Virus record (IMG/VR): IMGVR_UViG_3300005611_000001
Direction: 5' to 3' (one strand)
Length of the DNA: 64,000 bases
From: a virus
Taxonomy: Duplodnaviria; Caudoviricetes
A program made the position numbers and the translations under genes. Shown piece after piece: positions 10,106 to 31,181 of this stretch (the stretch's first letter is position 1; every line of letters begins with the position of its first letter). Under the pieces are notes generated by a model that ran no database searches, was not told the DNA's origin, and saw nothing but the letters and a program-made list of their open reading frames with translations.

Positions 10106-10177
10106 AATCAACCACTTAGCCGAGCCGACAGCCGGTAGTTTTTAGGGGTTGACAGTAGTGCTGGATCGTGGTATTAT
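10106..10177 (+). promoter_or_regulatory. Early promoter cassette (IHF site, AGCCGACAGCCGGTA element, -35/-10)
   Basis: AATCAACCACTTA 10106; CCGAGCCGACAGCCGGTAG 10120; TTGACA 10149, 17 bp, TATTAT 10172. Confidence 0.8.
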
Positions 10178-10208
10178 ACGCTTGTCAACTGAGAAGAGAG
10201 ATAGAAAT

Positions 10209-10577
10209 ATGGCTTATGTTACGCAAGAAGAGAAGAAAGAAATCGCTCCGGTCGTCAAAAGCATCCTCGCTGAGTACGGTCTCAAGGGTACGCTTGGCAT
10301 CAACAACCACAGCACTCTTGTTCTCAAGATCAAGAACGCTGTTGCGATGTTCGCCCCTTACTTCCGCGATGACTTCGACCGTAAGTGGGGTCTTGATGTC
10401 AATGAGTACTGGATTGACCGTGACTACGCTGACAATCCGACCATTGTCGAAATGCTGACCCGTGTGGCTGACGCCATGAAGGGCAAGAACTACTTCAACA
10501 ACGATGATTTCATGACCGACTACTTCCATCGTAAGCACTACATCGACATCAAAGTTCTTGGTGAAGAGGGCAAGTAA
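10209..10577 (+). CDS. Hypothetical early protein
   Basis: MAYVTQEEKK start downstream of the promoter. Confidence 0.8.
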   Translation: MAYVTQEEKKEIAPVVKSILAEYGLKGTLGINNHSTLVLKIKNAVAMFAPYFRDDFDRKWGLDVNEYWIDRDYADNPTIVEMLTRVADAMKGKNYFNNDDFMTDYFHRKHYIDIKVLGEEGK

Positions 10578-19160: not shown

Positions 19161-20387
19161 ATGTTTGATTCTTTTCAACAGTTCATAACAGAACAAAAAA
19201 ATACTCATATGACACATATTGAGGATAAAGTTCTGTACGGCGGTGTTAACGGGACTCGTCAAGCAATTCTTGCTTTGCGTGAGTTGCGTGACATGCTAGC
19301 AGGTAGTAAACAGAGCAAAGTGTCTGTGAAGTGGGACGGAGCACCCGCCATCTTCGCAGGCACTGACCCTCGTGACGGTAAGTTCTTTGTAGCAAAGAAA
19401 GGCATCTTCAATAAGAATCCCAAAGTCTATAAGACAGCCGCAGAAATTGACGCAGACACTTCGGGTGATCTTGCAACTAAACTGAAAGACGCTTTGACTT
19501 ATCTTCCTGAACTTGGTATTAAGGGAGTGATTCAGGGTGATTTTCTTTTTGGAAAAGGCGATCTTGCAAAAAAAAAGATCGACGGTAACACATATGTTAC
19601 TTTCCATCCAAATACCATTGTATATGCAGTGCCTGTAGATCAAGCAAAAGATATTCTTCAAGCAAAGATCGGTATTGTATGGCACACTACATATACTGGT
19701 AACACTTTCGAAACTATGAAGGCTTCGTATGGTGTGAATGTAAGACAACTTAAAGCTAGCAAAAATGTATGGTCGCAGGATGCAATGCTTCGCAATGTTC
19801 AGAATGCGACTTTGACTAAAAGTGAAACGGAGACAGTAAATGAATATCTTTCGCAAATTGGTAAACTTTTTAACTCCATCAGTGGCACAACCCTCAGAGC
19901 CCTTGAAGGAAATCCAACCCTCGCCCAGCACATTGAGCAATACAACAACACCTTCGTCCGTGCCGGCACCGTCATTGGAAACTCCCAAGCCCACACCACA
20001 AAGCTCGTCCGCTGGATCAAAAACAAGTACAAAGCCGAAATCGACAAGCGCAAAACCGCGAGCGGCAAAGCCACGCAGCAGAAAAAGCTCGACGACCTCC
20101 TCTCGTTCTTCTCAGAGGAAAACAAAGCAAACCTCGTAAAAATGTTTGAGTTGCAAAAATTAATTGTTCTTGTCAAACTAAAACTTATAAATAAATTAAA
20201 CCAGTTGAGTAATCTTGAAACTTTTGTTAAAACACGCAAGGGTTTCAAGGTTACTGGGCAAGAAGGTTATGTGGCTATTGACACACTTGGTGGTGACGCG
20301 GTGAAACTTGTTGATCGTATGGAGTTTTCATACAACAACTTTTCACCTGATATTTTGAAGGGATGGGATAAACCAACGAGAAACTAG
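19161..20387 (+). CDS. Ligase/capping-enzyme-fold nucleotidyltransferase (DUF6267-like) with CTS-like N-terminus
   Basis: Motif I KWDG, motif III-like IQGDFL, motif IV EGYV, motif V KLV. Confidence 0.7.
   Translation: MFDSFQQFITEQKNTHMTHIEDKVLYGGVNGTRQAILALRELRDMLAGSKQSKVSVKWDGAPAIFAGTDPRDGKFFVAKKGIFNKNPKVYKTAAEIDADTSGDLATKLKDALTYLPELGIKGVIQGDFLFGKGDLAKKKIDGNTYVTFHPNTIVYAVPVDQAKDILQAKIGIVWHTTYTGNTFETMKASYGVNVRQLKASKNVWSQDAMLRNVQNATLTKSETETVNEYLSQIGKLFNSISGTTLRALEGNPTLAQHIEQYNNTFVRAGTVIGNSQAHTTKLVRWIKNKYKAEIDKRKTASGKATQQKKLDDLLSFFSEENKANLVKMFELQKLIVLVKLKLINKLNQLSNLETFVKTRKGFKVTGQEGYVAIDTLGGDAVKLVDRMEFSYNNFSPDILKGWDKPTRN
19840..20139 (+). CDS. Overprinted +1-frame Ser/Pro/Thr/Lys-rich protein inside the ligase-like gene
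   Basis: GGAG SD 7 nt before ATG; host-gene third positions switch to C over about 19873-20135. Confidence 0.6.
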   Translation: MNIFRKLVNFLTPSVAQPSEPLKEIQPSPSTLSNTTTPSSVPAPSLETPKPTPQSSSAGSKTSTKPKSTSAKPRAAKPRSRKSSTTSSRSSQRKTKQTS

Positions 20388-26786: not shown

Positions 26787-27161
26787 ATGATGCTTTTATT
26801 TGATGAACTTAATGAAGATACTTTTCTTCTGTATGCAGCGCGAAGTTATTATAATCCCACTTGTATTGATGCAGAAGAATTCTACGAAGATGTTAATCGC
26901 TTCAAGTATCTCAAACGGCTTGTCAAACGATACGAAGACGGCGGGAAGCTTTCTGTTAATCTCATACTAAATCATCTGGTTGTAATCTTTAATGTTTTTG
27001 GTATTGACACGGGATTGAGGATGTTAGAATATAAAGTATTTACTGAAGAAAATCTACCAATTCTCAAGCCCTTTCTCATATATTTGAACGTAATACCAAA
27101 CGATAAATATACAGGCACAGCAATGGACGAAACTGTTGTTGAAGAACTGAGGAACATATAG
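26787..27161 (+). CDS. Hypothetical late protein of a type recalled from T4-like phages
   Basis: YYNPTC..EEFYED..RFKYLKRL. Confidence 0.8.
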   Translation: MMLLFDELNEDTFLLYAARSYYNPTCIDAEEFYEDVNRFKYLKRLVKRYEDGGKLSVNLILNHLVVIFNVFGIDTGLRMLEYKVFTEENLPILKPFLIYLNVIPNDKYTGTAMDETVVEELRNI

Positions 27162-27742
27162 TGTCATTAGCATCAAGAGCAGGCGATCTTTATTATTCTT
27201 TTCGTTTTGTAAAACTTCTCACAACACCGTGGGAAGAAACTGACGCATACAAGCTTGGTATTATCGATGAAAATGGCAAGCGTGTCAAAGCTGTTAAGCT
27301 TGATAATGACGAAAAGAAATCCGCATACACAACTTTCATTCGTTTAGTCTTCAACATCAAAAGACTGCTAGAGAAAGTTCCTGGTGGTAAAAGCACTCTA
27401 GCGTCTTATGCAGCAGCGCTGTTTCTTCTCAAAGAGAAATATTCTTTGAGTGATGCAACCGTTCACAAAATTTTAAAGCAATCAAACATCGATCCTCTTG
27501 ATTTTCTTGAAGAAGGTTGTTACTGGTACGTTCTGGAGAGCAAGCAGTTGTCGCCTGGCATTTATCGTCTACGCGAAGAGCGTATTACAAATCTAGAAGA
27601 AATGACTTTATCAAAAGATCAGATTCGCGTCGAAGATGGCGCATATCCTGTTGGTTCAATTCTCGGTTTAGATATATATCAAGTGACTCATTTAAATACG
27701 AATCAACCAATGTATGTCACAGTGGGAGAGCTTTACAAGTGA
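27161..27742 (+). CDS. Hypothetical late protein
   Basis: RFVKLLTTPW..AYKLGIID; GTG start. Confidence 0.8.
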   Translation: MSLASRAGDLYYSFRFVKLLTTPWEETDAYKLGIIDENGKRVKAVKLDNDEKKSAYTTFIRLVFNIKRLLEKVPGGKSTLASYAAALFLLKEKYSLSDATVHKILKQSNIDPLDFLEEGCYWYVLESKQLSPGIYRLREERITNLEEMTLSKDQIRVEDGAYPVGSILGLDIYQVTHLNTNQPMYVTVGELYK

Positions 27743-27912
27743 AATCGTTCAAGCAATTTGTTGAAGAGCCTACAATGACTACAGGTCCTGGCATTGCTGG
27801 TACTTCGAAAAACGATCCCGCAGACTGGATGTACGGCAAGAAGAAGAAGCGTCGACCCCTCACCAGACGCTATATTGAAATCAACGGCAAGTTCAAAAAG
27901 CAGCAAAAATGA
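27739..27912 (+). CDS. Small protein with CTS-like start
   Basis: GTG-KSFKQFVEE. Confidence 0.65.
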   Translation: MKSFKQFVEEPTMTTGPGIAGTSKNDPADWMYGKKKKRRPLTRRYIEINGKFKKQQK

Positions 27913-29198: not shown

Positions 29199-31181
29199 AT
29201 GTCAGTCACAATCGATTTATCGCGGGACGAATTGCTAGAAGATTACGCGGTAGGAATGCTTAAAGATTTTTATCTGAACGAATATGAAAACTCACCACAA
29301 GAAGCATATGCTCGCGCTGCAAAGGCATGGGCAACATACAAAGACGAAATGGATGTGCAACTGGCTAAAAGACTTTACGAGTATGTTTCGAAAAAGTGGT
29401 TCATGTTCGCATCGCCTGTTTTGTCGAATGCACCCAACGGGCACGGCAAGGGCAAGGGAATGCCTATCTCGTGTTTTCTCACTTATGTGCCTGATACACT
29501 TGAAGGATTAATTGATCACTCTAGTGAACTGCGATGGCTTTCCGTGCTTGGTGGCGGCGTAGGCGGTCACTGGAGCGATGTTCGTACTGTATCTGACATT
29601 GCGCCTGGTCCAATTCCGTTTCTGCACACTGTAGACGCTGACATGATTGCGTATCGTCAAGGCAAGACTCGCAAGGGTTCTTATGCTGCGTACATGGATG
29701 TCTCTCATCCTGATATCGTAGAGTTTCTGAATATGCGTATTCCTACAGGCGATGTGCAACGCAAAGCGTTGAATTTGCACAACGCCATCAACATCACTAA
29801 TGAGTTTATGCAAGCAGTTGTTAGCAACAGCGATTTTGATTTAAGAGATCCAAAAGACGATGCAATCAAAGAAACGATCAATGCTCGTAAACTGTGGGAG
29901 CGTATTCTTGAGATTCGTTTTCGTACTGGCGAACCTTATCTAAACTTTATCGATACCGCAAACGATGCGCTACCTCAAAATCTCAAAGACCTTGGGCTTA
30001 AGATTCACGGTTCGAATCTTTGCAATGAGATTCACTTGCCAACTTCGGCTGACAGAACTGCTGTGTGCTGCTTGTCTTCTCTCAATCTAGAGTATTATGA
30101 TGAATGGAAAGATACGAATATTGTGCGTGATCTTATTCGCATGCTTGACAATGTCCTGCAGTACTTTATCGACAACGCACCTGATTCTATCTCAAGGGCT
30201 AAGTACTCGGCTGAACGAGAAAGATCCATTGGCTTGGGCGCTATGGGATTCCACTCTCTCTTACAGAAACATGGAGTCGCATGGGAAAGTGAAACTGCGA
30301 AAGAGATCAATACGGTTGTCTTTGAGCGTATCTCCAGCCAAGCAAACGAAGAGACTAGACTTCTCGCGCAAGAGCGAGGCGAATATCCTGACGGAGTGGG
30401 CACCGGTCGACGCAACGCACATTTGCTCGCTATCGCCCCAAATGCGTCCAGTGGTGTTATCTTGTCCACCTCGCCATCCATTGAGCCTATCAAAGCATGC
30501 GCATACACACACCGTACTCGCGCCGGTTCATTCTTGGTGAAGAATAAGTATCTTGATAAACTGCTGACCGAGAAGGGCGAGAATAACGAATCAAACTGGA
30601 CTTCAATCATCACCAACAAGGGTTCTGTTCAGCACCTGCCATTTTTGACTGAAGGTGAGAAAGCCATCTTCAAGACCGCACAAGAACTTGATCAAACCTG
30701 GGTTGTGCAACATGCTGCGGATCGTCAAAAGTATATCTGCCAAGGGCAATCTGTGAATCTATTCTTTCCCGCTGGTGCACCAAAATCGTATGTAAATAAA
30801 GTTCATATCAAGGCATGGAAAGAAGGGCTCAAGGGTCTGTATTATCTGCGCACCGAAGCCAAGTCTCGCGCAGAAAATGTGTCTGAGAAAGTCGAGCGCG
30901 TAGCACTGCAAGACGACAAAAGAAATATTGTCTATAGCAAAAAGAACTGCCCGTTCTGTGCAATGGCGATGGAAGAACTGAAGTTGCGTGGTATTCCATT
31001 CGACAAAATTGATCTAGAAGAAATTGGCAAGACCGCAGCAGAAGTGACTGGAAGAAAAGTGAGTACTGTTCCTCAAATTTATATTGGGGGTAATTATATT
31101 GGTGGTTATGAAGACCTTATGGCGTTTCTAAATAACGCACCTGTCGAAGAATCTGATGAATGCAAGGCTTGTGAGGGCTAA
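29199..31181 (+). CDS. nrdA: Class Ia ribonucleotide reductase alpha subunit with fused glutaredoxin
   Basis: SNLCNEI, IAPNASS, GLYYLR; then CPFC...TVPQIY Grx and terminal CKACEG. Confidence 0.93.
   Translation: MSVTIDLSRDELLEDYAVGMLKDFYLNEYENSPQEAYARAAKAWATYKDEMDVQLAKRLYEYVSKKWFMFASPVLSNAPNGHGKGKGMPISCFLTYVPDTLEGLIDHSSELRWLSVLGGGVGGHWSDVRTVSDIAPGPIPFLHTVDADMIAYRQGKTRKGSYAAYMDVSHPDIVEFLNMRIPTGDVQRKALNLHNAINITNEFMQAVVSNSDFDLRDPKDDAIKETINARKLWERILEIRFRTGEPYLNFIDTANDALPQNLKDLGLKIHGSNLCNEIHLPTSADRTAVCCLSSLNLEYYDEWKDTNIVRDLIRMLDNVLQYFIDNAPDSISRAKYSAERERSIGLGAMGFHSLLQKHGVAWESETAKEINTVVFERISSQANEETRLLAQERGEYPDGVGTGRRNAHLLAIAPNASSGVILSTSPSIEPIKACAYTHRTRAGSFLVKNKYLDKLLTEKGENNESNWTSIITNKGSVQHLPFLTEGEKAIFKTAQELDQTWVVQHAADRQKYICQGQSVNLFFPAGAPKSYVNKVHIKAWKEGLKGLYYLRTEAKSRAENVSEKVERVALQDDKRNIVYSKKNCPFCAMAMEELKLRGIPFDKIDLEEIGKTAAEVTGRKVSTVPQIYIGGNYIGGYEDLMAFLNNAPVEESDECKACEG

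Follow-up and report, generated by a model that had tools for sequence, protein, structure and literature searches.

A probable overprinted gene in the +1 frame of a DUF6267 gene of uncultured aquatic T4-like phages

The 64,000-nucleotide (nt) stretch of the IMG/VR virus record IMGVR_UViG_3300005611_000001 (Caudoviricetes), called here the window, contains a 99-codon open reading frame (ORF) lying wholly within a longer gene of the same strand, in its +1 frame. The longer and older gene, hereafter the host gene, encodes a DUF6267 protein (Table 1). Comparison with related phages indicates that the embedded ORF is likely a genuine gene that encodes a protein and was overprinted on the DUF6267 gene. 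Dual coding had been proposed in a sequence-only reading of the window, and the joint conservation in homologs of the ORF, its ATG, its Shine-Dalgarno (SD) sequence, the codon bias of the host gene and the synonymous sites now gives that proposal a good probability.

According to the mechanism that we propose, ribosomes on the same mRNA would start independently at GGAG-N7-ATG, and the product would be a protein of ~10 kDa in which a short amphipathic helix at the N-terminus precedes a tail that is intrinsically disordered, strongly basic and rich in Ser, Thr, Pro, Lys and Arg. The third base of a host codon is the second base of a +1 codon, so that C there gives Ser, Pro, Thr or Ala, and T gives Phe, Leu, Ile, Met or Val. 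If selection favours a +1 product that is hydrophilic and free of stops, T-ending host codons would thus be turned into C-ending ones, and T endings would be kept over the N-terminal helix because hydrophobic residues are wanted there.

All elements of this arrangement were located in the window. The ORF starts MNIFRKLVNFLTP, encodes 99 amino acids (aa) and has GGAG 7 nt 5' of its ATG. The abrupt switch of the host gene to C-ending codons is equally plain: across the patch, host third positions are C 0.56, T 0.07, A 0.22 and G 0.15, against C 0.15 and T 0.41 in the upstream flank and C 0.12 and T 0.38 in the downstream flank. A and G at position 3, as well as codon positions 1 and 2, are nearly unchanged, and the bias ends at the +1 TAA. 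Over the first 12 codons of the ORF, T-rich host third positions give Ile, Phe, Leu and Val in the +1 frame. Nowhere else in the window do C content (0.373 per 150 nt) and C-G skew (0.213) reach the values of the patch, and the 40-codon stretch with the most C at third positions (C3) among 70 genes lies within it (0.65; mean 0.22, standard deviation 0.09).

The length of the ORF was rejected as evidence within the window. In resampling that kept the host protein and drew synonymous codons from flank or window usage, a +1 ORF of this length had P = 0.03-0.04, ranking 9th of 140 frame tests in the window. When codons were permuted within the patch only, so that the C bias was retained, a +1 frame this long was open in 30% of trials (P = 0.30), and the +2 frame in the patch is partly opened too (70 codons). 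Since C at host position 3 is C at +1 position 2, where no +1 stop is possible, the open frame follows from the bias, and the direction of cause must come from relatives. Taken by themselves, the chance opening of the +1 frame, the partial opening of the +2 frame and the strongest C-over-G skew of the window agree with a different account, in which the selected feature is a C-rich, G-poor, unstructured tract (a Rho-utilisation-like or protein-binding RNA or DNA element) and the +1 ORF is its untranslated by-product. We regard this account as improbable on the evidence from relatives that follows.

An IMG/VR search with the host protein gave 80 loci at 70-96% aa identity (of 594 homologs reported), and a second IMG/VR search, with an alignment of +1 proteins as query, gave 71 loci. 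All 71 matches to the +1 protein sit within DUF6267 genes and none stands alone. Merging and codon-aligning both sets yielded 115 distinct homologous genes, which fall into four classes: class A (52 genes) with a +1 ORF of 80-101 codons and patch C3 of at least 0.38; class B (32 genes) with a +1 ORF of 60-96 codons and low C3; class D (7 genes) with a +1 ORF of 55-57 codons; and class C (24 genes), in which the +1 ORF is broken. The +1 ORF is carried by ~80 of the fetched loci (53 distinct gene sequences), and two genes, L090 and L091, bridge the class A and class B proteins. Patch C3 reached 0.36 or more in 53 distinct genes of the 115, and in all 53 the +1 ORF is intact, at 80-101 codons; broken genes reached a C3 of 0.31 at most. 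A C-biased homolog with a broken +1 frame, sought among all 115 genes, was found in none.

The start signals persist together with the ORF. In 51 of 52 class A genes the +1 ATG occupies the identical alignment column, and the ORF-bearing genes without ATG at the shared column (L016, L032 and L061) offer instead an in-frame ATG 2-3 codons further upstream. An SD of the form GGAG or GAGG occurs 5-13 nt upstream of the start in 47/52 class A, 18/32 class B and 1/24 class C genes; 14 of the class C genes have no ATG nearby. In most carriers the SD is read from ACG GAG, a synonymous choice. One subclade has ACA GGA GAA (AGGAG), in which host Glu is changed to Gly and the SD is retained. The anticipated persistence of ORF and SD was observed among carriers. 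Neither the conserved ATG, nor the shifted replacement ATGs, nor an SD written through different host codons is predicted for a C-rich tract selected as such, and SD and ATG disappear along with the patch.

The extent of the bias also depends on the ORF. It had been claimed that the bias ends at the +1 stop, and in relatives it stops at the +1 stop proper to each lineage. In genes with the stop at alignment columns 328-331, C3 was 0.57 and then 0.47 in the last two bins before falling to 0.06, compared with 0.26 and then 0.17 in those same bins when the stop is at columns 312-319. Class D genes have a shorter C-rich patch, ending near their earlier +1 stop.

In the core of the patch in relatives, host T3 (T at third positions) is 0.00-0.08 versus 0.3-0.4 in the flanks, with A at flank level and G somewhat lower. 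T never creates a +1 stop, so its loss at host position 3 is not explained by stop avoidance; the hydrophobic residues that T encodes at +1 position 2 make its exclusion fit selection for a hydrophilic +1 product. T is moreover the mutationally favoured base here and would be a neutral, harmless pyrimidine in a merely C-rich element, yet it is nearly excluded. Composition and lack of structure fit a tract of the Rho-utilisation kind; the tract is inside a translated gene, where a rut-type site would be covered by ribosomes, which weighs against a site of that type.

Synonymous sites of the host gene are constrained where the ORF is full-length. Divergence was measured after thinning each class to <95% nt identity, which left 28 genes in class A, 26 in class B and 22 in class C; their flanks diverge alike at third positions (0.56, 0.53 and 0.58, respectively). 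For the first 12 ORF codons, third-position divergence in class A was 0.228, and none of the 395 twelve-codon windows of the gene (mean 0.50, standard deviation 0.09) had a lower value; over these codons it was 0.404 in class B and 0.605 in class C (rank 240). A second class A trough of host third-position divergence, 0.28-0.29, covers the SKTSTKKKST motif, and in the first class A sample third-position divergence at alignment columns 280-300 (0.251) was lower than first-position divergence (0.307). Over the best-conserved +1 segment (residues 55-79; Table 1), column conservation was 0.75 in the +1 frame versus 0.71 in the host frame. The synonymous-site conservation expected under dual coding was recovered with a Synplot-like observed/expected ratio of 0.74 inside the overlap versus 1.07 outside it in class A; the ratio was 1.01 in class B and 1.07 in class C. 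The most constrained 12 codons, at the ORF start, are T-rich and not C-rich, and selection on the C-rich tract that they precede leaves this constraint unexplained.

Conserved RNA structure was rejected as the source of constraint: RNAalifold found no conserved pairs around the +1 start and the whole region folds no better than shuffles (z +0.52), a lack of structure that would equally suit the C-rich tract. Selection acting on a different frame was rejected, since in carriers neither the +2 frame nor either of the two relevant antisense frames is uninterrupted.

The conserved synonymous sites just past the start of the overlap lie around AAA CTT TTT AAC and could instead mark a shift site, CTT-to-TTT being the kind of slip used in prfB. 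The +1 frame would then be entered by programmed +1 frameshifting, giving a fusion of the basic tail to the N-terminal two-thirds of the DUF6267 protein. Such a route appears very unlikely. The putative slip site is followed by no stop or rare codon, and its motif varies among carriers (AAACTATTTAA, AAATTGTTTAAC). A +1 stop directly before the ATG in most carriers would confine the shift to a window of a few codons, and the well-spaced SD and ATG are conserved and compensated.

Avoidance of +1 stops was measured in a non-circular way, on the host-protein sample only and over the whole clade of the flank tree, broken members included. Parsimony counted 40 switches of +1-stop state within ORF codons 1-66, where the flank rate predicts 94 (Poisson 2.5e-10), and +1 stops occupied 10.6% of at-risk sites in these codons versus 37-41% in the flanks. 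TTA, CTA, GTA and ATA are used only before codons beginning with C or T. Class B (67-83 codons, low C3) showed stop avoidance and this context-dependent codon choice without synonymous constraint, and its +1 ORF may be either a functional short form or a decaying one.

These results bear as well on the idea that nothing here is functional, the patch being a recombined piece from a donor with other codon usage, or a mutational oddity, and the ORF being passively inherited. In favour of it, phage genes are mosaics, and the host protein varies most in the overlapped segment (aa identity 0.56-0.67 versus 0.74-0.88 in the flanks). Nevertheless, the flanks gain stops ~2.4-fold more often, lineages that differ at 52-56% of flanking third positions have kept both bias and ORF, and the patch is found in independent metagenomes. 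Unlike in a GC-rich donor, C alone rises and G3 does not; a foreign GC-rich insert was rejected on this ground and because the DUF6267 profile runs through the segment without a gap. Passive inheritance is accordingly the account to which we give hardly any credence.

Several observations weigh against a protein-coding +1 ORF and temper our conclusion. From the window alone, the ORF is not significant, either against background codon usage or given the C bias. Class counts are enriched for carriers, the second locus search having been queried with the +1 protein. Class B shows no overall synonymous constraint. Apart from the N-terminus and one basic motif, the +1 sequence is kept mainly in composition, as a C-rich tract would also allow. 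As to frame-specific constraint, +1 and +2 identity differ little (0.54 versus 0.49), carriers and ORF-less relatives are equally free to vary at host position 2 (+1 position 1), and the differences in identity and in divergence at host positions 1 and 2 are small and not decisive. A phylogenetically independent-pairs test of SD against ORF had no power, because only 4 pairs were supported. Finally, the repeated loss of the +1 gene implies that it is dispensable.

A tree built from the flanks only places the carriers within a single clade. Its 5 basal lineages, the cultured phage C48C1 among them, are without ORF, ATG, SD and bias. In the remaining clade of 78 rows, class A occupies the deepest branches of every subclade, with B, C and D nested within, and ORF, ATG, SD and bias vanish jointly in nested lineages. 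Six cultured relatives (DLP_6, Melnitz, HTVC008M, S-PM2, P-HM2 and C48C1) have no start at the site and 3-12 +1 stops and likewise show neither SD nor bias, and tblastn of the +1 protein against 50,697 GenBank phage records gave no match in a search weakened by the low-complexity filter. The +1 ORF is thus phylogenetically narrower than the host gene, which has DUF6267 homologs in 92 GenBank phage records (cyanophages and phages of Pelagibacter, Methylophilales and Stenotrophomonas). One gain followed by several truncations and losses is the simplest reading of these sequences, and segment recombination is also possible. The +1 gene would have had a single origin, within the most variable, helical part of the host protein, in an ancestor shared by one group of uncultured aquatic T4-like phages, and would later have been cut to 67-87 codons or lost in several sublineages.

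DNA contigs 90-98% identical to the region occur in freshwater, estuary and aquaculture sequencing runs. A 1658-nt contig from an aquatic metatranscriptomic library (run X15) matches 19623-20386, the whole overlap included, at ~95% identity; strand, transcription start and translation are not readable from contigs, and these matches were given no weight as evidence.

The predicted +1 product of the window is 10.5 kDa with an isoelectric point (pI) of 11.8, 17 Lys + Arg and 3 Asp + Glu residues, and contains 23 Ser, 14 Thr, 14 Pro and 11 Lys. Among class A proteins, the median is 11.0 for pI and +16 for net charge, and the composition is 20% Ser, 17% Lys, 13.5% Thr and 10% Pro. An amphipathic helix with a disordered basic tail had been predicted, and AlphaFold2 with 18 homologs agreed, modelling a helix at residues 3-11 and nothing else (predicted local distance difference test, pLDDT, 64; predicted template-modelling score 0.14). 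The 99-aa product returned nothing usable from Pfam, PHROGs or a set of 5.8 billion proteins, and the best ESM Atlas score, 0.89, was under that resource's own threshold. There is no Cys in the product, nor in nearly all class A homologs.

Three consecutive genes of the window, at 19161, 20389 and 20835, begin with M-x(1-4)-F-x-x-[FY]-[IL]-[TV] (MFDSFQQFITE, MLSFKDFLTVD and MSFPSFKQYLVEE), a start present in 0 of the other 67 genes checked and one that recalls the capsid-targeting sequences of T4.

The +1 start, MNIFRKLVN, resembles through FRKLVN the F-x-x-[FY]-[IL]-[TV] starts of these three adjacent genes, a pattern that was fitted post hoc. T4 internal proteins IPI-III and other head-packaged proteins carry an N-terminal capsid-targeting sequence. 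As a lead only, the small, basic +1 product with its N-terminal helix is like the T4 internal proteins; it differs from them in that no (L/I)-x-E protease site is conserved after the helix in the class A alignment. The product is possibly a polycationic nucleic-acid-binding protein, conceivably packaged like the T4 internal proteins, a suggestion that we put forward tentatively. More doubtful is the fuller scenario of a de novo overprinted protein working as a polycationic internal or nucleic-acid-binding protein, with an N-terminal helix that mimics the capsid-targeting starts of its neighbours, the family being a legible record, in natural populations, of how such a gene is born, extends its tail, is truncated and is lost.

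Pfam DUF6267 matches the host gene over its whole length (E = 3.8e-104, profile positions 1-373 of 376), and phrog_455 is its PHROGs match. It belongs to a run of co-directional genes, with a cytidylyltransferase-like gene adjoining. The nearest GenBank phage homolog of its protein is that of phage C48C1, at 69% aa identity. The basis of the earlier label "ligase-like" is motif resemblance (KWDG and similar motifs), and K57-W58-D59-G60 is invariant in 29 homologs; PDB phmmer and Foldseek found no ligase match and Pfam yielded DUF6267 only, so that a ligase identity is unconfirmed. In the predicted model, host residues 220-351, the segment carrying the overlap, form a helical bundle (pLDDT mostly 76-94); the model is poor near the invariant KWDG (pLDDT <50 at residues 48-60) and over the C-terminal 60 residues (<50). 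In all classes, no other part of the host protein is as poorly conserved as the overlapped segment, which evolves fastest and yet is modelled with confidence. At ~20280-20345 (host codons ~373-393), third-position divergence is low (0.25-0.35) in all classes, including ORF-less genes. This stretch lies 45-110 nt upstream of the next gene start (20389) and covers the conserved EGYVAID...KLVDRMEFSYNNF; codon bias, the initiation region of the next gene or structure are possible causes.

Table 1. Coordinates of the host gene, the embedded ORF and associated features in the window
Feature	Position	Strand	Description
Host (older) gene	19161..20387	+	408 aa; Pfam DUF6267 / phrog_455
Shine-Dalgarno GGAG	19829..19832	+	7 nt before the +1 ATG; from host codons ACG GAG (Thr-Glu)
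Candidate overprinted +1 ORF	19840..20139	+	99 codons + TAA (20137-20139); inside the host gene
First 12 +1 codons, MNIFRKLVNFLT	19840..19875	+	Predicted amphipathic helix; host third positions T-rich
C3-rich, T3-poor host patch	19873..20135	+	Corresponds to the hydrophilic Ser/Pro/Thr/Ala-rich and Lys/Arg-rich +1 body
Best-conserved +1 part, residues 55-79, SSSAGSKTSTKPKSTSAKPRAAKPR	20002..20076	+	Class A consensus SS.GSKTSTKKKST.AKP.KA

Other alternative frames of the window were also screened. A second long +1 ORF lies at 30097-30540 (+), inside the gene at 29199-31181, with 147 aa from its ATG and 149 codons from stop to stop. It lies over a moderately C-rich stretch (C 0.34 at 30324-30563) and has a synonymous-resampling P of 0.02, from window data alone. 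Within 10149-10577 the +1 frame is open for 99 codons at 10159, and within 27161-27912 the +2 frame is open for 76 codons at 27511, both beyond synonymous resampling (P < 0.004). These two open frames probably reflect mis-chosen frames or starts in the mechanical gene list and not dual coding.

Phage lambda provides a familiar embedded gene. Rz1, the o-spanin, is embedded in the +1 frame of Rz with its own SD and ATG and has a Pro-rich product; this lipoprotein carries a signal peptide and a lipobox Cys and has its functional partner in the host gene, Rz. The +1 ORF described here is likewise a phage ORF wholly within the +1 frame of another gene, with its own SD and ATG and a Pro-rich predicted product. 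Unlike Rz1, its product has no Cys or signal peptide, and its host is DUF6267 and not an i-spanin. A spanin pair of the Rz/Rz1 type was rejected on the absence of Cys from the 99-aa protein and of an evident N-terminal transmembrane segment from the host protein sequence. The product also resembles histone H1-like and SPKK-type basic tails in being rich in Lys, Ser, Thr, Pro and Ala, with a pI of ~11 and predicted disorder, and differs from them in having no sequence-family match and no regular repeat.

Overprinted (de novo) viral overlapping genes have been reviewed by Pavesi 2021 (PMC8227390) and characterised by Pavesi et al. 2018 (PMC6195259), with a published signature of enrichment in C, Ser, Pro and Arg and depletion in T (PMC6195259). 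The composition of the +1 gene matches this signature. As in these systems (PMC8227390, PMC6195259), a same-strand ORF in an alternative frame is embedded in an older, widespread gene and has a restricted range; the predicted-disordered product is enriched in Ser, Pro and Arg, the region is C-enriched and T-depleted, and synonymous variation of the older frame is reduced. Most documented cases are from small RNA or single-stranded DNA viruses under genome-size pressure, whereas the phages studied here are T4-like with double-stranded DNA, and related IMG/VR contigs reach ~150 kb. A further difference from documented cases is that full-length, shortened and lost states occur within one gene family.

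Standard gene callers discard embedded genes, and the +1 product was in no protein database searched. A sharp switch from T- to C-ending codons, bounded by SD-ATG and a +1 stop, offers a practical flag for such genes. The function of the +1 protein would be relevant to phage biology only if the protein is made. In the +1 ORF we see a candidate, and a well-supported one, for a gene born de novo by overprinting in a large double-stranded DNA phage, where genome-size pressure is weak. Its natural variants (99, 87, 83 and 67 codons, and lost) may provide a usable system for following how a new disordered protein is shaped while an older folded helical domain stays functional.

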